Positions 11,207 to 39,263 of a DNA stretch of 64,000 nt are shown in pieces. The notes under the pieces were generated by a model, which had not been told where the DNA came from, did not search any database, and was given only the letters and a program-made list of their open reading frames with translations. Every line of letters starts with the position of its first letter. Positions within the stretch are counted from its first letter, which is position 1. A program made the position numbers and the translations under genes. The DNA is from Pseudogymnoascus verrucosus (lineage: Eukaryota), in assembly GCA_001662655.1 (NCBI GenBank), contig KV460226.1. One strand, given 5' to 3'.

Positions 11207-11278
11207 AGCAATTTGGCGCAGCGGAAGCGCGCCGGGCTCATAACCCGGAGGTCGCATGATCGAAACATGCAATTGCTA
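11207..11278 (+). tRNA. Initiator tRNA-Met (CAT), intronless
   Basis: Cloverleaf with acceptor stem AGCAATT/AATTGCT (A1:U72), CCGGG/CCCGG anticodon stem around CTCATAA, initiator-type T-loop GATCGAAAC, downstream oligo-T terminator. Confidence 0.95.
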
Positions 11279-23140: not shown

Positions 23141-24190
23141 ATGCCGCCTGGAAATACTAAGCCGAGTCCACGGATAGCGATTATCGGCGTTTGCCAGGTC
23201 GGCGCCGCTGCTGCCAACGCGCTCATCCTCGGCTCCGTCGCGACCGAGCTGGTCCTAGTTGATGTTAAAGTTGACCTGAGAGACAGCCAGGTCCGCGATC
23301 TCTCCGATGTGACCTACAGCCGCAACAGCGCTACGAGCGTGCGAGCCGGCACGCACCAAGAGGCAGGGCAGTGCGACATTGTTGTCATTACCGCAGGGTC
23401 AAAGTATTCTTTAGGTAATAGATCAAGTTGATATCCTGGGGGCGCGAGCTTATGTGATTTGTCAGGTCAACCTAGCATCGACCACATGTACCGGAACATT
23501 GCGACTATTCGGAGTGCAATCAAAGCAATGAAGCCATTTAGATCAGACACCATCTTACTCGTCGTGGCGAACCCTGTCGATCTTCTCACGTCCCTTGCTC
23601 AAGAGCTCTCCGGACTTCCGGCATGTCAAGTTTTGGGCTCAGGCACCTTCCTGGACTCGGTGCGTCTTCGTGGGCTGTTGGCAGCCCAAGCTGGAGTACG
23701 TGCATAGAATTCCTACGTCCCCGTCCAAACGTCCTGATTAAGATAGGTCGCAGCCAATTCAATAGACCTCTACGTATTAGGTGTGCATGGCGATTCTCAA
23801 GTTGTTGCATGGTCGACTGCAACTATTGCTGGTGTTCGAGTCGAGAAATACCTCTTGCCTAGCATTTTCAACCATGCCGACCTTGAGAATGATTGCAAAT
23901 ACAGATCGCAGAGCGTTATCCAGGTTAAAGGGGCGACACCCTTTGGAACCGGCGCTGTTGTGTCTAGCATGTGTTCTTCTATTCTCTTGGACAAGCGGAA
24001 TGTTCGTCCCGTTAGCCATTTCCAAAAGGAGTTCGGTTGCTGTTTCAGCTTGCCTGTGGTCCTTGGGAGGAAAGAGATCATAAAGACCATTCAGATGCCG
24101 CTGAATGGCGACGAGAATGCTGATATAGCCAAGTCGGCGATGACGCTGAAAGGCATGATTGAGCGGATCAAAGAGGATCAGCAGGCTTAA
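23141..24190 (+). CDS. L-lactate/malate dehydrogenase-like protein, 3 exons, atypical motifs
   Basis: DIVVITAG; VANPVD; GSGTFLDSVRLR; GVHGDSQ; KGATPFG; introns ~23414-23465 and ~23696-23746. Confidence 0.9.
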
Positions 24191-24495: not shown

Positions 24496-24818
24496 TCAGC
24501 TGCAGCAACCTGTGGACTGGCACAAGAGAATGCACCCCAATCTCTGGATGCTGCAGTCGTGGCCAGGAGCGCAGGGCATATCTAGTAACTATTAGATTTC
24601 CGTAGATTTTGTTTCCACGCCCCCATTCCTGTACAGGGCTAGACATAACGCTTACCATTGTAGCAGTATGCATGGCAAGCTGAGCAGCCTGAGTAGGCGC
24701 ACTTCCGCGCCTCTAGTGTAGAACCGACGGCCGCGGCGCTCTTTGCCTCGACGGGGGAGGCAAGTACGACGCTGGAGAAAATAGCCGAGACAGCGACGAG
24801 GATGGTGATTAGCTTCAT
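24496..24818 (-). CDS. 82-aa secreted prepropeptide with a 10-Cys mature peptide (not in the ORF track); intron 24582-24655
   Basis: Spliced product MKLITILVAVSAIFSSVVLASPVEAKSAAAVGSTLEAR-KCAYSGCSACHAYCYNDMPCAPGHDCSIQRLGCILLCQSTGCCS*; GTAAGC donor, CTAAT branch, TAG acceptor; TATAAA ~105 bp upstream. Confidence 0.88.
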
Positions 24819-25853
24819 GGTGGCTTTATTCGAGTTTGATATTGACTGGTTTGGTTGTTGGCTGTTGAGGTAGATGAATGCAAGTGTGTTTGTCCGTTGG
24901 AAAGAAGTGCGAGCACGCCATCATTTATAGACCATATACGCCATAAAACTCCCCAATTCAAAAGAGTCTCTTCTGCGTAAGTGAGAGGCCATATCGTAAG
25001 TTGCCTTTTTTGAAGAAGCAATTCGGGAAACAACCTCTCCGTGAATTAAAAAGAGTCAGTTACGGGAGAGCGTAGTTATAAGGATCGTACTAATAAGCAT
25101 AACTTTATATTACGGGTGGCTTGCGTCTATAAATTCCACCAATAATCCAAGACGAGGCGGCGCCTCATGTAACATAAATGTTTATACCATGGTACTGTTG
25201 TCAAATCAACGTAAGAGCACCGCGAAATTAATACGAAGCATTGCTCGACCTCACCCTATCTACCCTGCTCCCTCGCCTCCTTCCTCTGCTCACCGTCGCA
25301 TTACTCTAAGATTACTCTAAGATTATCATTTAACCTACAATAAATCCAGATCCTATGCTAAATCCATTGACATGATTCGGGCAGAAAGCAAGTGAGTTGA
25401 AAACCTTCCTCTCTGTAGCTGTGTCGCATTGCAATTACCTACTGCAAGAAGCGGAGTTTGGATTTAATTGTCTGGAAGAAGATGACAAGGTGAGTCTGCT
25501 GATGGAATACAGCAGCGATTACTCGTGAGCTATTACTGACACCATCCGCATATCACACTCGACTAGCACAACGAACTGCGATTGAGCCGCTTACTCAGAG
25601 TCATAATTCTCCGTCCATTGAAAACGGATAAGACTGGTTCTATCTCATTAAATTACAACGCATAGCTATGGCATAGCTATGCTATAGATAGCTAGTGAGC
25701 TGCCAAACATCGCCCACCGTCGTTTGGCTCAGGCAGCCTGTGCCTAGGAATTAACCCCGCGGCGCAGTTTAGCATCTGTTAAGATAACTAACTACACGCT
25801 TCAAGGCCGAAGTCATAACTTCGTTGTGCCATGTGTGGGTTAGACGTGCTGGT

Positions 25854-26322
25854 TTAACATGGCCCAAGAGCAGCTGTAGTATCAAATTAGCAACAGCACA
25901 AATACGACATTTGATCTTTAAAAATAGAATGCACTTACCAATCGAGCAGCTGCTATCAGTCAGCGATCCACTGAGAAAGCAGGATCCGCCATCGTAGTGT
26001 AGCTGATCCCAAGTGCTGCGGACAATGTTAGCCATCTTAGCCACATGCTTGGCATAATTCTCACGCACCAGTTTCCATTGACACACTCGCCCTTCTTGTA
26101 GCATGAGAAGGCGTGCTTTGAACCGGCATCCACCTTCTTTGCAACAGGATAGTCGGTGCCGGGCCCAGTGCGACAATTTGCAGTGGTTCCAGCGCTTATG
26201 TTGATGACCTTACATGATATAGCTTTAATTACTTGGCACTGCTCGGTGGAGGATTCTGCGGCAGGCACGGCCAAGATGGTGGCAGGGAGGAGGAGGAGGG
26301 CAGCGGTGATAGAAAACTTCAT
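25854..26322 (-). CDS. 116-aa secreted Cys-rich protein with an SH3b-like domain; introns 26016-26068 and 25874-25938
   Basis: Signal peptide; NCRTGPGTDY..FSCYKKGECVNGNCTWD..CFLSGSLTD..AALGPC*; canonical splice signals. Confidence 0.85.
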
Positions 26323-27044
26323 TATGGCGACGCTAAAACTTCAAAAATAACAATGCGATGTCGAAGACGATCAACCTAATTATCTGAAGATGCTCCCTTT
26401 ATATGTGGTAACATAGCCCCGTTGGCTTGGCCCGTCTGTGGTTTACATTAGTGTCAGCACGGCACAATTGTTCACCCGTAACTCAGGTCCAGACCAACTA
26501 GCTTCAACCAACACGATTAGGCTAATATTTCTTAGGAAAGAGGATACGTTAGTGGGCTTCATGGAAAACCATTTCAGGGGAGCTGAAATTAATGCACATA
26601 AAAATAGCTAACATTCCACGCTATACTTCTTGGCATGATTGAGCCTACTCCCAAGTAGTACTTAAGCTTGTGAAAAGAAGAGTGAAGTCGATGTCAAATC
26701 TCTTGAATGATTGCATGTGGTGGGATTTCTCGTATCGTGGTAATAACTGCCATCTGGATGGTGGAGCAGGGACTAGTAGAGCGCCATGATCGGGATCCCC
26801 GCTATACCCCATATAATTTGCAACTTAAAAGTTAATATCGACATCTAACAATTTAGAGATATGCGTTTCGCTCTTAACTTAATAGGTGATCAAATTGAAT
26901 ATCGTTTCTAATATCCGAGCCTTGAATGACTCCCTTGGTTTGTGGCTGTGACTGACGGTGACTCACTCCATCCATATCACCAAAACCATTCTTCGCGATA
27001 GCCTTCGCTGATTAACAAACAACACCACATTGCCCATTGACAAC

Positions 27045-29201
27045 ATGCATTCCGCCAAAGCTACAGCCAGCAGTATGACGTAGAAAGCTCTTTCCGTTAA
27101 TCTAAAGAACCCATATGGATTAAATCCCAAGAAAGAAAATGCACCAAAACCACCAAACCCCAAAGGCAAGGCCACACCTCCATCTCGCGACGCCCAAAAT
27201 GACCCCGACTCAATGTTCAAGGGCGGCTTCCTTGCCGACGTGTACAGCAAGAATCCCGTGAGATCAGATGGCATGGGAAGAGTCGTCACACGCTTTCCGC
27301 CTGAACCCAATGGCTTCCTCCATCTGGGGCATACCAAAGCGATTATGATTAATTTTGGATTCGCCAGGTTCCACGGCGGCGATTGCTACCTGCGCTTTGA
27401 TGATACGAATCCGACGGAAAAAGAAGAAAAGTATTTCATAACTATAGAAGAGATGATTAACTGGCTGGGATTTAAACCGGTGAAAGTTACCCATTCCAGC
27501 GATAACTTTGACCGCCTTTATGAGCTTGCAGAGGAGCTCATTAACAAGAACGGTGCCTATGTCTGCCATTGCACCAGTAAGATTTAGATATTTATGAGAC
27601 CTCTGATCGTGGCCGGTGTCTAACATTTCCTACAGAAGAAGAGGTTGTAGCCCAACGCGGTGGCGGCAAAGGCAAGGCTAGATACGCCTGCCCTCACCGA
27701 GGCCGACCCAATTCCGAATCCCTGGCCGAATTCCGAGCAATGCGTGACGGGAAATACGCACCACGCAAGGCAGTCCTCCGCATGAAACAAAATCTAGAAG
27801 ACAATAATCCTCAGATGTGGGATTTGACGGCTTATCGTGTCCTTGACGAGAAGCACAAGCATCACCGGATGGGGAACAAGTGGAGGATTATCCCACCTAC
27901 GATTTCACGCACTGCCTATGCGATACCTTCGAGGGGGTAACACACTCGCTTTGCAACACGGAATTTGAGCTTTCTCGGGTTTCGTATGAATGGCTATGTG
28001 ACAAGGTTGCTGTTTACAAGCCGATGCAGCGAGAGTTCGGCCGCCTCGGGATCTCGGGTACTGTTCTTTTGAAGCGCAAGATACTTGCTCTTATTGAGAG
28101 TAATCATGTCCATGATTGGGATGACCCTCGTTTGTATACGCTTATTGCTCTTCGGCGCCGGGGGGTTCCTCCCGAAGCGATTCTCGGTTTCGTCAACGAG
28201 CTTGGGGTTACCATGGCCGAGACTACTATTGATACAAACCGATTTGAGCAATGCATTCGTCGCTATCTAGAAGTCACAGTTCCTCGCCTGATGCTTGTCC
28301 TCGATCCTATTCCAGTGGTTATTGATAATATCCCAGAAGATTATATTGAGATGGTGGAGCTGCCGTTCTCCAAAGATCCAGCTTCTGGTGTAAGTGATTT
28401 ACCTCTATAGACCTGTGCGATGAGAAAACCCCCTTGAAGTTTTGTGCATACAGAGCCATCGTTTTGGTTTTCCTGTCTTTACATTCACGAACGGCTAATC
28501 ATAATCCCTTGCCAGGTCCATACCGTTCCATTCACCAGAACCGTCTACATCGAACGCAGTGACTTCCGAGAATCGGCCTCAAAAGACTTCTTCCGTCTTG
28601 CACCTGGCACATCTGTCGGACTGTTAAAAGTCCCATATCCCATCACAGCAACTGGATTCGAAACAGACCCTGAAACAAGATTAGTTACTCTAGTGAACGC
28701 TCGTTATGAAAAGCCCGACGAAGGGTCTGCATTTAAAAAGCCTAAGAGGTATGTATTATCCTTACTATCTTCACCCCCAAAATATATCAAAGCTAAATGT
28801 AGATGCTAACCTTCTCACTAGTTAGTTAGATCCACTGGGTTGCAAAATGCCCTTCAAAGAACAGCCCCGTCAAAGCTACTGTCCGCGTCTTCAACTCCCT
28901 TTTCAAATCAGACGACCCCAATACTCGACCTGAGGGATTTCTGTCTGATGTCAACCCCCACTTCGAGGAGATATTCCCAAACGCAATGATTGAGACTGGC
29001 ATCGAGGAAATCAAGCGCACCGCTCCATGGCCAAGACCCCGCGAGGGGTATACCGAGGCTGCATCTGGCATCACACCACCAGAAACCGTTCGATTCCAAG
29101 GGATGCGCATTGCATATTTCTGCCTAGACCGCGACAGTACAGAGACAAACCTCGTTTTAAACAGGATAGTAAGTCTAAAAGAGGATGCCAAGAAGGCATA
29201 A
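27045..29201 (+). pseudogene. GLN4: Glutaminyl-tRNA synthetase paralog, pseudogenised
   Basis: [29 protein letters not shown] motifs; in-frame TAG at 27081; 1-nt deletion at ~27888 (KWRI/YPTYDF); TAG at 28827 in S*IHWV. Confidence 0.88.
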
Positions 29202-29450: not shown

Positions 29451-29580
29451 AGTCCAAATCGAAGTCCAAGTCCAAGTCCAAGTTCAAGGACTTTTGTTGT
29501 CATTCCAGGTGGGACAAAGACTCATCTAAAGATGATGCTCCTTTCCAACTGATCGTATTAACGCCATACTTGATTAGTCG

Positions 29581-30331: not shown

Positions 30332-30787
30332 TTACAGCACTGCTTTACCCTGCTCAATCTGCTTTATCACCGAATCGGTATCGACGAGGTCCCACACATC
30401 AGCGAATTTGCCATCCACCGGGTGATAAAGAGTGAACTGTGAAGCAGTCACGCGGCAACCAGTTGGCTCAATTCCCTGGAAAGTGCCTTGGTGGGTACCA
30501 GTGACCCTAAGATGCAGGGCGAGGTAGTTGCCTTCGATAGTGAGATTCCTCATCTCCCAATGCCAGTCGGGGAATGCGGCAATCAGAGGCTTGAACTGCG
30601 CCGTAACTTTGGATGGAGCCCAGGGTTCATCGTTGACGTTAATAGGCGAGGTATAGAATGACTCCATTGCCTTGAAATTGTGTGCATTGCAATGCTCAAT
30701 ATAGGAAAGGTATAGTGCCCGGCGTTCTTCGTTCTGGGCTGCGTAGCCAGTTACTCCAGAAACAGGCGGTGTTCCTTGAGTAGCCAT
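30332..30787 (-). CDS. SnoaL-like ester cyclase/polyketide cyclase (NTF2-like), intronless
   Basis: AFPDWHWE..GTHQGTFQGIEPTG.RV..FTLY..DGKFADVW. Confidence 0.9.
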   Translation of the reverse strand: MATQGTPPVSGVTGYAAQNEERRALYLSYIEHCNAHNFKAMESFYTSPINVNDEPWAPSKVTAQFKPLIAAFPDWHWEMRNLTIEGNYLALHLRVTGTHQGTFQGIEPTGCRVTASQFTLYHPVDGKFADVWDLVDTDSVIKQIEQGKAVL

Positions 30788-31395
30788 TGTCTTATGTATG
30801 AAAAAAGGAGCTCTTTAAAGCAGGGCCGGTTTAATAGACGTGAAATGGTGAATACTTTCTTCTGAGAAGCAGTCCAGCTTATAAGAATTTATATGGGCGG
30901 ATAGATAAAGTTTATAAACTAATGAGAACAATGTTAGACACACTTTTTTGTAAACCGGGGGCCAGAGGGAAATTACAGGCTAAGATTGAAGATGCTTTTA
31001 TAAATCTGACGCTGTAGGTTGTATCTGTCAAATGTAAATAGAAATTGCCAAAATATACTTGGTATATTTGGTGATATTGGAGTTGTCGTTACGAGAATAG
31101 AATTGGGGGGTTGTTAAGAGCTAAGGGGATGAAGGTCTTAGTTATATACACAAGGGCGATGCCATGTAGGTAGGGACACCTCTTAGCTAAGAAGAACATC
31201 GTTTGGCACCAAGACGTATCAATAAAATCTGCTGTTGTCAGATTACCTAACCAGCTTACCTGACCAGCTTACATGACCCTACTGACAGATGGCTATTTCA
31301 GTACCAATTAAAGTCTGGCTTCACATGATGATGTAATCTAATACAGGCAAAAAAAATACAAAGGCAGCCTGTCAGGGAAACTGGAAAGTACGCCC

Positions 31396-34053: not shown

Positions 34054-37000
34054 TTATTTATCTTCCTCGGTGCCTTCAACATAAGCGAATGTCGGTCCTG
34101 TTAGAGTGAAGTTAGTAAATATTATATCTAAAGTAGCATCTATAGCATGACTCTACTGGCAAAGGTACTGCTCGTGTTAGCATCCTTCGTGATTCTCTCA
34201 CTTACTCCTTTGGGGTGGTTCCATCTCAGGGTCCTGTTCTGGACCCTTTGCTTCATTGTCGCCATTTGAACCCTCATTCTTGGTATCTCCAGGATCATCT
34301 GCTGCGTGATTTTTATCATCCGTCTGTGTATTGGCAATCCCAACCTGCGGTCCATCATCAATCTCAACCTGCGGCCCATCACTCTTCTCGTCTTGTGTGA
34401 CTGGTTGTTTAGCTTCTGATTTTTTATCACCTGAATAGATGGGGTCCCAAGTATCGTCAACCTGCGATCCATCATCAATCGTCTCAACTTGCGGTCCATC
34501 ATCAATCTTCTCAACTTGCGGCCCATCATCAATCGTCTCAACTTGCGGTCCATCATCAATCTTCTCAACTTGCGGCCCATCATCAATCTTTTCAACTTGC
34601 TGTCCATCATAAATCTCAACCTGGGGTCTACTATATTCCCGGTATTGTGCGACTGATTGTTCTTCTCTTGGCTCTATATCTCCTGAATAGATGGGGTCCC
34701 AATCATCGTCTGTTGTACTTGAGGTTGTACTTGAGTCCTGCTCTGTTTCCTCTATGATGTCTTCAACTGCCTTCTTTGCATTTTCTTTCTTGGCTATCCT
34801 TGCTTTGATCAATTCTTTTCTGGAGCGGTACTCCTTCTCTTTGGCTTCCTTTTCCGTCTTCGACTTTTCCTGCTCGTATATGCGAGCCTGCATCATCTCT
34901 TGGGTTAGCTGACGTTCTTCTAATACCTTTCTTCTCTCCAATTCAGAATCTCCCTTAGAATGACCCTGGTATTGGGGTAACGGTTGCCTTACATCTTCAG
35001 CCATTTGGTTGTAAAAGCTGAAGTTGGATAAGTCAACAATCATGTCCTGGGGCAAATCCCCAGCCACAGCTCTTGCCGCACGTTGGGCCTCTTCTAGTTG
35101 CACGGTAAATTGTTCCTGGAATCGAAACAATGCACTTTGAATCATCCGTTTGCACCACTCCATGAGGGGGTTTTCCAGAATTCTAGCGAAGTTTGGCGGT
35201 GATGACATTTGGTCTTCAAAGTCGGCTAGCTCATCCCTTAGGGCTTGGAGTTGTGCTTCGTCATGTGCGAGAAGGTATTTTGTAAGACATGTTTGCAGAT
35301 AGCCAACCATGTCCCCTTGCGTTAACTTCTGTAAGTTGCCAAGCTTTGCAAGTAGTTCCGTAGGATCTTCAGACCGGCAGGCGAGCTCTCTAAGAAAGCT
35401 TGCCTCCATACGGTAATCTCCTAGGTCCTGAGCAGCTTTTAGACCAGTATGCAATAGGTCGGTTGAGTTGCCCTGGAGAGTACTGGCACACCATCCTGGG
35501 TTTTCAGCACTGATCGGAATGTAAATAGGTAATGCGTTTAACCAGACGGTAAGCCCAGGAAACCTCCTTAAACTCTTTTGCGTCGATGTTGCATCATTTC
35601 CAAAGCCTGCCACGTGTCTTGCTAGCTCCGCCTCTGCTAATATCCATCTTAAATATGGCCTTGACTTGACATGCTCAGGATTGTTGTCCTTAATACAAGT
35701 AGAGAATCTCCTCGCAAGCTCTAACACTTGTTTTGCATTGCCAATAGCTTGCTGATTAAGCCTAGGGCGGAGCTGCGAAATAAAACTCTGGCCTAGAGTT
35801 GCCAGGATATCGAGAGTAGCGAGATATGATGATTCGTCGTACTCTTCAAGATTCCAATCGCGTAGGAAGTCAGCAAAGAAAGCGGAGGAGTATATATCGG
35901 CGCCAATAAAGGTTTTCCAGGTATGCTTTTGTCCTAGAGCTGACACAGATGCTGAAATTATATCACGGACGTCCCATATTCGCCCATCCGATAGAAGTGA
36001 CTTATACAACCCTGGCCGTTCAGACCAGATACCGGAATACATGAAAGGCGGAAAAAAACTCGATTTATCTCTCAGATAAGACAGGACTTTGAGGTAGTAT
36101 TGAAGTATTTGTAGCTTTGCATGTTAGAATAGCTCTCATATTATGGAAAACGTGCCTTGAATGACATACATCTGATGAGCAAGGTTGTCTGTCCGTCTTT
36201 CTTGTGTTGATGTATGTTGAGAGCTCGTCCAATTCTACGGTTTGAAGTCCCTTTTTAAAAAGACCCTTGGAATGAAATTCCCTATACGCTGAGCGGAGGT
36301 AGATGCTAATCTCGGTTCTCGTAACAGGCTCTGGTAATTGTCCGGGGGTTACTCCTCCTCTCTCCATAGCCATGATGTTGGACCTGCCAGGACCGAAGTT
36401 GCCGTTGTTCAGAGCATGACGTTCACTTTCCGTACCATAATTTTGTGCAGGTTCTGGGCCGTCGCCACCCGGAAGAGGTGTCTTATGTGATTCATCTTTC
36501 GTATAGTTTCCACGATCTAGAAGCATGTCTGAGTACTCTAAGAGGACGGGTTCCAGGTCGTTGTGGTCGAAGAGATGCGTCTCAAAGTGCAGCTCGGCTT
36601 CTTTGAAGTGCCCTAATCTAACCAAGCGGGAGAATTCTTCTAGTCGGCTCTCGACATCATCCTCTACATCAAGTTCCAGATGAACGGTTGTATCACGAGG
36701 CGAGGAAGGGTTCCATGTAACGTTGACAGCATCCGAGGAACTTCCGCGAGCTTGAGACTGAACCTTCTCCCGCGAAACACTTGTCATTTTACCCCGTTCG
36801 TTTTGATCGCGCAAAGAAACCCCATTTCGAGGGTCGTAGTTAGGAATTTGGTCCTGCCACCATGGATAGCGCTCATAATCCCTTCCTGGCCCTGATAAAT
36901 CCCTGCCATCAGACTTGCCACTGTTATCTCGAAAACGATACGGTATGTCTCTCTCCCTCACCGCGAGCGGCTCCGCAGTTTCAATATCTGCAGCATATCT

Positions 37001-37493
37001 TCGCTGTGTAGTATTTACATTAAGCGGAGTACGGCGAGGTGGCACGAACGGATCCTCGGGGTTTTCTTGACTCATAGTACGCACATTTCTATCTGAATCC
37101 AGTTAGTATCGCTACTGTTGATGATAGAAATAATGTACCATAGTAGATATTGTGGTAAGGCGTTTTGGCTTCTAGATGAACCGGAGGTGCTTCGATCGGA
37201 TTACCATAGGCATTCATTATTCGAGCGCCCGGAGGAGGGGCTAGCTTAGGAGAACCAGGCGCTCTGTCTTTACGCATCTGTGACTCTAAATCGTCAATAC
37301 GCTCGCGCTCGACTTTGTTGATGCGTCCGAGTTCGCGCTCGATTTTGTTGACACGATCGAACTCACGCTTCATTTCGTCGAGCCGTACAAGGAGTCCAGG
37401 GCCGTCTGAGACGGCCGTGGGCACCAAGAACCGAGACTGGGCGTCTCGGCTGCTATGCAGTCGGGCTCGCTCCAGAGACGACGACCTATTCAT
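34054..37493 (-). CDS. Large hypothetical helical (TPR-like) protein with C-terminal acidic repeats; multi-exon, 3' end uncertain
   Basis: ORFs 37089-37538, 36065-37084 and 34198-36042 join in frame through GT-AG introns (~37093-37138, ~36115-36169). Confidence 0.7.
34340..34700 (-). repeat. Coding minisatellite, 27-bp unit (GPQVE[K/T]IDD) about 6 times, nested in a larger duplication (WDPIYSGD twice)
   Basis: tcaacttgcggcccatcatcaatcttc-like units; tgaatagatggggtccca at ~34432 and ~34684. Confidence 0.93.
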
Positions 37494-37736: not shown

Positions 37737-37810
37737 ATTTACTCGATTGATTTTACTCGATTGATTTTACTCGATTGATTTTACTCGATTGATTTTACTC
37801 GATTGATTGA
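37737..37810. repeat. 14-bp minisatellite (ttttactcgattga) x5
   Basis: Five near-perfect tandem units between two divergent genes. Confidence 0.96.
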
Positions 37811-37865
37811 GCGCACCAAATCGTTCATAGTAGCAACCCCGCAACAGTTGTGGATTCCAAGAAGC

Positions 37866-39263
37866 ATGACTTCCCAACAGCCTGGCATCTCCGCGCGGAA
37901 GTTCGGCCGGTCTTTCGAATGCTTTGATTCCCTATCATCAGCGAGCGTGGGCAATCGAGAGCTCGGAAAGGTCAAGATAGACTGTCGATTCCGTCTATCG
38001 AAATCGAAATGGGGTGTGTTGGGAAACGCAGAACGGTCCGCTGGAATTCTCTACATGGATCTCTGCTTTGATCAACCAAAGGACTGCAGGCTATCTAGCG
38101 CAACGGTTTTATTGACGTTAGATCATGAGGTTAATGACATAGATAGGTATCGGAGACCAGATCCTGTGTCCATTTCTCGGGCAAACTCGCTTCAGATGAC
38201 CAATTATTTCGGACCAAGGCAGCTAAGCGGCAAGCAAACGACCGTGAATATGAAGTCTACTTACCGCCTCACCCCCGAGGTCAATGTCATGGGCACTGGT
38301 CTGGGAGGATTAGGGAAAGATGTTGAGACTAAGCGGGAAGTCACCAGTAGGTGGACCTTCACCGGACAGCTTCAGCCAGGCAAGACTGCAGCCTACCGAA
38401 CTCTGAAGTGGGAACTGAGCGAAAACGAGTTGGACCTCCAATCGCTACATAGTAGTACCATCCACACGGGATTTACATTTGAGCATGATCAGAAACCATG
38501 CTACCTTCGCGTTGAAATCACAGGCAAACTGCGGGGAGTGCGGCACCGTATAAAGGAGAACCTGAAGTTCCCTCCAAAGCGATCAAAAAACCAGGGCGAG
38601 ACCGTCGTTAAGATGGATCTTGGTCCACAGCACAAGTTCAACACTCGCCTTGACTCGTTAGCAGATGGCTTAGCGATGGCAATGGAAATGGAGAATTACG
38701 AGAAAATTCCAGTTGAGATGCCCGAAGCTATACCGGCGTTCTTCCAGGAAGTCCGCAATCAGCAAAGTCAGCTAGCAGCGACTTCCAATCCAGCGCCACC
38801 CCCTTCGTCGGAAGAGGCAATAATAGGTCGGATCGATCTTACTCCAGCGCAACCGCCAATGCTCACCGCACCAGTCGCCGAAGACCCCCTCATTGAAGAG
38901 CTCGCTAGGGCGCATTTGTCCTTCCCTCTTCCAGCCCAGATCCGGCGGAGGGCTCCCAAGAGTATGTCCTCAAGTTCGACGGTGACACTAGTAGGAGTGG
39001 AGGAGCGGGATGAGGAGATATCTGCAGCGTTAAAAGGCGCGCAAAACGGGGTACCTGAGGTACAGAAAGAATTCAACGAGGTTGGACAAGCTATACACGC
39101 TGTGCAGGATCTCGTGAAGACAGAAAAGGAAGAAGTTGATGCTGCTCTAGAAACGTTTATGCGACTTTCACAATCCCCTGCACTTCTGTTTCTTATTCAT
39201 GTATTTGCTAGCTTCTTGGATTTGTTTGCAAAGAAGCAAGCGTCTGTTAAAAAGAAATTTTAA
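37866..39263 (+). CDS. Hypothetical protein, intronless; beta-rich N-terminal domain, Pro-rich linker, hydrophobic C-terminal helix
   Basis: 486-codon open frame; first ATG at 37866; divergent from the 34-37.5 kb gene. Confidence 0.8.
   Translation: MTSQQPGISARKFGRSFECFDSLSSASVGNRELGKVKIDCRFRLSKSKWGVLGNAERSAGILYMDLCFDQPKDCRLSSATVLLTLDHEVNDIDRYRRPDPVSISRANSLQMTNYFGPRQLSGKQTTVNMKSTYRLTPEVNVMGTGLGGLGKDVETKREVTSRWTFTGQLQPGKTAAYRTLKWELSENELDLQSLHSSTIHTGFTFEHDQKPCYLRVEITGKLRGVRHRIKENLKFPPKRSKNQGETVVKMDLGPQHKFNTRLDSLADGLAMAMEMENYEKIPVEMPEAIPAFFQEVRNQQSQLAATSNPAPPPSSEEAIIGRIDLTPAQPPMLTAPVAEDPLIEELARAHLSFPLPAQIRRRAPKSMSSSSTVTLVGVEERDEEISAALKGAQNGVPEVQKEFNEVGQAIHAVQDLVKTEKEEVDAALETFMRLSQSPALLFLIHVFASFLDLFAKKQASVKKKF

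Follow-up and report, generated by a model that had tools for sequence, protein, structure and literature searches.

Results

A complete glutaminyl-tRNA synthetase gene with a private frameshift

A 64,000-nucleotide stretch of Pseudogymnoascus verrucosus contig KV460226.1 (assembly GCA_001662655.1; hereafter the window, numbered from its first letter) carries at positions 27045-29201, on the plus strand, a complete homologue of glutaminyl-tRNA synthetase (GlnRS) in four exons. We read this locus as an accessory second GlnRS gene of Pseudogymnoascus that has newly become a pseudogene, and put the probability of this reading at about 0.82. It is built on the structure of the gene, its lesions and their distribution in four sequencing runs, a second GlnRS locus in the genome and the placement of the gene in phylogenetic trees.

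As the original prediction had stated, the gene is full length and has introns, and all three Pfam domains of GlnRS are present (Table 1). The catalytic domain tRNA-synt_1c (PF00749) was matched by three open reading frame (ORF) pieces at domain positions 2-101, 100-185 and 179-313 of 314, with E-values of 2e-40, 7.8e-12 and 7.6e-33, and both anticodon-binding beta-barrel domains were matched as well (PF03950, positions 2-42 and 38-90 of 91; PF20974, positions 2-57 of 69). Because the last two PF00749 pieces overlap yet occupy different frames, the gene must contain a frameshift. Read through with an X at each of its two breaks, the window model has 631 residues and aligns without insertions or deletions to P0002, the 631-aa protein of Pseudogymnoascus sp. 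VKM F-4518. A public P. verrucosus protein (P0342, 324 aa) is letter for letter residues 308-631 of our model and corresponds to an ORF open from Met308 to the natural stop; that it covers this part alone is expected if the frameshift cut the annotation short.

The frameshift is a 1-bp deletion in codon 262 that disrupts the sequence KWRIYPTYDF, and the shifted frame reaches a stop at 27938-27940. We compared four runs (X1-X4) as Logan contigs; X1 contains all sampled words and is a possible source of the window. The X1 contig equals the window over 2401 bases with 0 differences, 0 gaps and no variant listed, at a word depth of about 212, whereas X2, X3 and X4 all have a T inserted behind position 27887. 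Run X2, from a sister strain, differs from the window in three places only, namely 27380 C>T (synonymous), 27420 A>G (Lys to Glu) and the T behind 27887. The deletion is real in so far as assembling the same reads a second time recovers it, and it is derived and private to the window strain. At the level of assembled contigs the sequencing data favor this lesion, which is the only one that certainly inactivates the gene. Run X3 contains at least three homologues of the GlnRS stretch (about 97%, 85% and 83% identity), one of them with a replaced intron 2.

A second, divergent GlnRS locus in the genome

Three of the runs (X1, X2 and X4) each contain a separate contig, of 53.8, 56.3 and 47.1 kb respectively, that matches the 47 nt at window positions 27889-27935 with 3 differences and then diverges from the window. 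The 30-nt flanks of this match are identical in the three runs and, translated by hand, read in frame HHRTGDSWKI before it and (G)ISHSLCTTEF after it, and so retain the canonical Thr residues that are replaced in the window copy. The genome holds, then, a second and divergent GlnRS-type gene, and the window gene is the extra copy it had been taken for. The second locus is presumably the working housekeeping enzyme. The window GlnRS would be dispensable because another GlnRS locus presumably charges tRNA-Gln, and the loss of the window copy was probably neutral. The window gene itself is likely to have once encoded an active GlnRS that aminoacylated tRNA-Gln; there is no tRNA-Gln gene within the window. 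Metagenome scans for the second locus used a 30-nt flank and a back-translated, degenerate form of GDSWKIYPTYDF; both returned 0 matches.

Two TAG codons that need not inactivate the gene

Three independent lesions had been proposed for this gene: the deletion near 27888 and TAG codons at 27081 and 28827. The deletion and TAG 27081 are real; TAG 28827 is splice-dependent.

TAG 27081 (codon 13) is also present in run X2. In the closest intact orthologue, P0341, codon 13 specifies Glu and so, judging from the protein, is one base from TAG. The public model of the sister strain (P0001) removes the stop by a 63-nt in-frame intron, and in the window strain a start at the downstream ATG 27213 is possible. 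Compared with the gene's ancestral state TAG 27081 is a lesion, but it need not inactivate.

At intron 3, joining donor GTATGT at 28749 to the acceptor AG at 28824-25 gives K-S-stop-I-H-W, and only this splice brings TAG 28827 into the mRNA. Joining donor GTATTA at 28753 to the acceptor AG at 28828-29 keeps the frame and yields KPKRY/IHWV (the slash marks the junction), which is colinear with the KPKSY, KPKTY or KPKAY that precedes IHWV in all intact orthologues; P0342 follows this splice. Models P0001 and P0341 combine donor 28749 with a downstream acceptor and in so doing lose 13 conserved residues. The consensus donor GTATGT, 4 nt upstream of 28753, is created by an AGG (Arg) codon at a site where most relatives have Ser, and the TTAG duplication at the intron 3 acceptor is derived, since X4 lacks 4 letters at 28819. 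TAG 28827 is thus probably an artefact of the splice model or at best ambiguous, with no stop forced, and mis-splicing at intron 3 may itself be a lesion. An X3 contig in which 28746 is joined to 28824, intron 3 being absent, was rejected as evidence of how the window allele is spliced; it is about 83% identical and comes from a relative.

Replacements at near-invariant positions

We aligned the window model with 148 type-A GlnRS proteins of 560-760 aa; fragments below this range and fused models above it were excluded. With the window and P0001 set aside, the other 147 rows define 159 columns of at least 98% conservation, and at five of these the window has changed: E126K, S275T, T285N, S323L and S553F. 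Two of the five are the motif drift noted in the original prediction, SLCNTEF for SLCTTEF and VLLKRK for VLSKRK; the KMSKS-type VLSKRK is accordingly absent from the window copy although its Ser column belongs to the conserved set. The median row deviates at 0 of these columns and P0001 at 4; the count in the window is the second highest among the 149 rows, exceeded only by the 10 of P0005, a visibly broken model. Four of the five changes arose in the common lineage of the window and P0001, as P0341 keeps the canonical residues, and E126K is a change of the window strain only. Taken with the private frameshift and the nonsense codon, these changes uphold the description of the copy as decaying.

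There are 126 differences from run X4. Among the 39 differences listed, 35 are coding (16 synonymous and 19 non-synonymous), which gives a crude ratio of about 0.3-0.4 for what is a non-random subset. A mutation bias of the repeat-induced point mutation type was considered and rejected, as A>G plus T>C changes (44) are about as many as C>T plus G>A changes (45) in going from the window to X4.

From these comparisons we propose the following course of events. In the lineage common to the window strain and its sister strain, the gene would have acquired the nonsense codon in the linker, several replacements of near-invariant residues of the catalytic core and the cryptic splice donor. The window strain alone would then have gained the 1-bp deletion and, at a conserved site, the replacement of Glu by Lys. 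The deletion is predicted to end the protein near residue 280 of its 631, ahead of the KMSKS loop and the anticodon-binding domains.

Models of the gene from five other strains (P0005, P0008, P0348, P0349 and P0353) also have internal gaps or frameshift-like segments. P0005, from strain 23342-1-I1, has three out-of-register segments, and in the other four about 96 residues of the catalytic core are missing. A kinase is fused to the C-terminus of three of them (the VKM F-3557 group). No remnant of that kinase was found in the window, so the flanks of the gene differ between the window and this group. The pattern fits repeated loss of the gene.

An old and patchily distributed GlnRS lineage

The best named matches of the gene are to Pseudogymnoascus strains, followed by Cadophora gregata (84%, exon 2), Hyphodiscus (82%) and then lichens and Eurotiomycetes (68-77%); no Botrytis- or Sclerotinia-type Leotiomycete proteins were among the matches of the protein search. 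Cluster look-ups place the gene in at least 11 named Pseudogymnoascus strains. In a 75-row maximum-likelihood tree (LG+C20+F+G4, quick search), with rows picked for named taxa and with unnamed rows, P0005 and the P0008 group excluded, the Pseudogymnoascus, Cadophora and Hyphodiscus sequences are sister to three Talaromyces and six Aspergillus sequences (versicolor, puulaauensis, sydowii, oleicola, stella-maris and pseudoustus), with a support of 95 in the Shimodaira-Hasegawa-like approximate likelihood ratio test (SH-aLRT). In the 75-row tree this group stands apart from a clade of Penicillium, A. fumigatus, Rasamsonia and Coccidioides. A 36-row LG+G4 tree recovers the same group with an SH-aLRT of 100.

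Monophyly of the Eurotiales sequences is rejected by the approximately unbiased (AU) test, at a cost of 191 log-likelihood units (p-AU 4e-50), and it is rejected again without A. cristatus and Coccidioides (126 units, p-AU 3e-124). These AU tests used LG+G4 without a mixture model on 36 and 34 rows, with groups that were defined after the tree was seen. The placement of the gene indicates a GlnRS lineage that is old, distinct and patchily distributed.

More widely, the GlnRS gene tree of Pezizomycotina conflicts strongly with the species tree, the Onygenales falling in three places and the lichens in two. The protein search returned two proteins each from Blastomyces percursus, Caeruleum heppii, Variospora fuerteventurae, Polycauliona sp. 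and Seirophora scorigena, from which it follows that extra GlnRS copies are common in Pezizomycotina. A query with Xylogone P0025 was aimed at the housekeeping copies of Leotiomycetes but matched proteins of Eurotiomycetes and lichens. A search with a profile built from six long-form GlnRS proteins found basidiomycete-type long forms and the query rows only, and is uninformative on long forms in Pezizomycotina; a look-up of P0002 in the ESM Atlas gave generic GlnRS clusters only. One further protein (P0170, ENA, 653 aa) is a divergent fungal-type GlnRS-like sequence with the altered motifs YPTYDM, HPLCDY and IMSKRL and a long acidic insert near its C-terminus, and may represent another paralogue class.

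Comparison with intact orthologues and with known synthetases

Intact orthologues are found in VKM F-4518 (P0002) and VKM F-4519 (P0341), in Cadophora (P0006, P0357) and Hyphodiscus (P0007), and in Aspergillus versicolor (P0011). The window model is identical to them at 557 of 629 positions (P0002, 89%), 559 of 606 (P0341, 92%), 72-76% (Cadophora), 455 of 587 (Hyphodiscus, 78%) and 403 of 567 (A. versicolor, 71%). All are colinear with it over their full length and have in common with it the short N-terminal linker and the KPK-x-Y/IHWV junction. They differ from it in their open frame and in the canonical motifs HRTG, CDSFEG, SLCTTEF and VLSKRK, at which the window copy carries M, T, N and L.

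Gln4, the cytosolic GlnRS of Saccharomyces cerevisiae (PDB 4H3S), aligns over residues 192-809 with residues 24-630 of P0002 at 700 bits, and has the same catalytic and two anticodon-binding domains as the lineage described here. The N-terminal domain of Gln4 (about 190 residues, PF04558/PF04557) is not part of this lineage, P0002 aligning no earlier than Gln4 residue 192; the domain occurs in 120 of 120 long-form matches from basidiomycetes and yeasts and in none of the matches to the window GlnRS or to the Xylogone query. Gln4 is the single essential GlnRS of yeast, unlike the window gene, which is a spare copy.

The other system that invites comparison is the lysyl-tRNA synthetase (LysRS) of the cladosporin cluster, tabulated as a known self-resistance gene in Table 1 of the FunARTS paper (PMC10320164); the criteria described there are duplication plus proximity to a biosynthetic gene cluster. 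Going by that table, this LysRS and the window GlnRS are alike in that each is a second aminoacyl-tRNA synthetase (aaRS) copy in a filamentous ascomycete, and unlike in that the inhibitor of the former is known, while the window GlnRS has no core enzyme nearby and is broken. In the relevant passages of a 2026 review (PMC13515044) aaRS-guided mining is represented by a bacterial threonyl-tRNA synthetase case only. Our literature searches turned up no natural GlnRS inhibitor, no publication joining GlnRS with self-resistance in biosynthetic gene clusters and none on GlnRS paralogs in filamentous fungi.

Alternative explanations

Several points weigh against a newly pseudogenised accessory copy. 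The housekeeping status of the second locus is deduced from 107 nt. X1 may be the window's own data, in which case a second assembler, and not a second isolate, confirms the deletion. Unique changes number 24 in the window and 21 in P0341 with P0002 as outgroup (p = 0.77), so there is no acceleration; the two rates being alike, decay is shown by the position of the changes and not by their number. TAG 27081 may be harmless, owing to the downstream ATG or the 63-nt intron of P0001, and the GlnRS copy of the sister strain may still function. The broken look of the gene in other strains, where protein models alone were compared, could in part be annotation error. A rival explanation is that the gene is functional, its frameshift being a sequencing error and its stops spliced out. 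The deletion does lie within a short T run, P0001 is a continuous 597-aa protein, and the third reported lesion vanishes with the right splice, but the independent Logan contig of X1 reproduces the deletion at high word depth without a listed variant, the public model identical to the window allele is itself truncated to 324 aa, and the same allele carries E126K and four further changes at near-invariant sites. We hold a functional gene obscured by artefacts to be very improbable. Hardly better placed is the idea that a useful fragment persists, either the C-terminal anticodon-binding half or the N-terminal half, in a role other than aminoacylation. Free or appended aaRS domains with other roles are known generally, and the ORF from Met308 is open and publicly annotated; against this, only one strain in the four runs carries the deletion, which is too recent for a selected new function, and there is no conservation evidence for the truncated form. 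That the gene is a recent neutral duplicate of the housekeeping gene, a case that had been named as refuting the original prediction, is the least credible explanation of all. The two loci do have in common the 47-nt stretch with its 3 differences, but outside it the second locus is unlike the window, and the orthologues, spread over Pseudogymnoascus, Cadophora and Hyphodiscus, form a well-supported old clade with Aspergillus and Talaromyces sequences.

The original prediction went beyond decay and proposed a relic of self-resistance, a paralogue that once guarded against a GlnRS inhibitor from a neighboring pathway or a competitor and that decays now that the pathway or the pressure is gone. 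The gene does duplicate a member of an essential drug-target class, and its surroundings are an accessory island of lower GC content that also contains SnoaL, P450, NmrA-like, LDH-like, alpha/beta-hydrolase and glycosyltransferase-like genes; its lineage is patchy across classes, as is often so for resistance genes, and the cladosporin LysRS tabulated in PMC10320164 provides a precedent. We scanned 243 ORFs of the window against Pfam (97 of at least 70 aa in 17.5-41 kb and 146 of at least 95 aa in the rest) and found no polyketide synthase, nonribosomal peptide synthetase, terpene synthase, dimethylallyltryptophan synthase or other core enzyme in the 64 kb, that is, none in the 27 kb upstream and the 35 kb downstream of the GlnRS gene, the near genes being of tailoring type only. 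The island, about 18-40 kb, is bounded on both sides by conserved non-biosynthetic genes. The LDH-like neighbor, the sole one checked in detail, is intact, and no sign of decay was seen in the neighbors. All canonical motifs are preserved in the intact orthologues, which show no obvious resistance-type substitution. The two GlnRS copies of several sampled taxa lower the prior, and no publication was found that links GlnRS to cluster self-resistance. The self-resistance idea is unsupported in the window, where nothing speaks positively for it, and we regard it as unlikely. No more likely, in our judgment, is the broader idea of a mobile accessory GlnRS that moved between Eurotiales and Leotiomycetes and was kept where a natural GlnRS inhibitor was made or met; if it were true, the repeated decay in Pseudogymnoascus would mark lost pressure, and the members that are still intact would lead toward a natural-product GlnRS inhibitor, the first of its kind. 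A route to a GlnRS inhibitor would likewise open if intact members were to sit in a conserved cluster.

On the preferred reading, a newly pseudogenised accessory GlnRS, the locus would be an instance of the ordinary loss of a duplicated housekeeping gene, and its chief use is annotation correction: in the public models of the gene and of its sister alleles the lesions are concealed or cut off. GlnRS comprises several old paralogue lineages in Pezizomycotina and, given these and the conflict between gene tree and species tree, duplication alone is a weak flag in mining for GlnRS self-resistance.

Features and genomic surroundings

Table 1. Coordinates of the GlnRS gene, its lesions and two neighboring genes in the window
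Feature	Position	Strand	Description	Evidence
Exon 1	27045-27576	+	ATG 27045; N-terminal Lys/Pro-rich linker, start of catalytic domain	tblastn with P0002 and P0001; PF00749 2-101; donor GTAAGA 27577
TAG, codon 13	27081-27083	+	In frame, in Lys/Pro-rich, poorly conserved N-terminal linker; orthologues have G, E or D	
ATG, codon 57 (MFKGGF...)	27213-27215	+	In frame; possible downstream start; A. versicolor orthologue model P0011 begins here	
HIGH-type motif HLGH	27321-27332	+	Intact	Identical in all aligned relatives
AAA (Lys), E126K	27420-27422	+	Private to window strain	X2, X3 and X4 read G at 27420; relatives have Glu
Intron 1	27577-27635	+	GTAAGA...CAG, phase 1	tblastn
Exon 2	27636-28389	+	Rest of catalytic domain, start of anticodon-binding domain; contains frameshift	Pfam, tblastn
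1-bp deletion, codon 262	27887-27888	+	T missing; ATTTAT read as ATTAT, within catalytic domain	
AAC (Asn) in SLCNTEF	27955-27957	+	Thr in the family	Alignment, column conservation
KMSKS-type loop	28063-28080	+	VLLKRK for VLSKRK; Ser to Leu at 28069-71	X4 has TCG at this codon
Intron 2	28390-28515	+	GTAAGT...CAG, phase 0	tblastn
Exon 3	28516-28752	+	Anticodon-binding domain, C-terminal ...KKPKRY	Pfam, tblastn
Intron 3, in-frame model	28753-28829	+	GTATTA...TAG, phase 0	Splice comparison, P0342
Exon 4	28830-29201	+	IHWV... to stop TAA; second anticodon-binding domain	PF20974, tblastn
SnoaL-like gene	30335-30814	-		PF07366, E = 1.3e-22
Cytochrome P450 gene	31696-33242	-	Two exon ORFs	PF00067, E = 1.6e-39 and 1.6e-06

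The GC content of the gene's stretch is 0.45-0.49, against 0.50-0.60 around it, and positions of about 18000-40000 have the look of an accessory island, a lower-GC block of accessory-type genes between higher-GC conserved blocks. The SnoaL and P450 genes lie 1.1-4 kb downstream of the GlnRS gene, close by as first described. The hydrolase, NmrA-like, Caps_synth-type glycosyltransferase and LDH/MDH-like genes share the island with two small secreted Cys-rich ORFs and three large ORFs without a Pfam family. On the upstream side the conserved flank comprises L28, SART-1, glucoamylase, PITH, PP2C and cytidylyltransferase genes, and on the downstream side F-box, Tctex-1, DUF202, RRM and HECT/WW genes. 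A break in the LDH-like gene by a stop at 23429 was considered and rejected, the stop lying inside an in-frame GT..AG intron.

The two small ORFs, at 24639-24920 (-) and 25960-26340 (-) just upstream of the GlnRS gene, have signal-peptide-like starts (MKLITILVAV... and MKFSITAALLLL...) and several cysteines; neither matched a Pfam family, and they have an effector-like or secreted-peptide look. The large ORFs at 34198-37102 (-) (641 and 345 aa) and 37779-39263 (+) (494 aa) had no Pfam match, and a tandem acidic repeat (DDGPQVEKI...) lies within the former at about 34400-34750. A short GTCCAA-type hexanucleotide repeat is present in the 3' flank of the GlnRS gene at 29455-29490, and the sole tRNA gene of the window is a tRNA-Met (CAT) at 11207-11278 (+).

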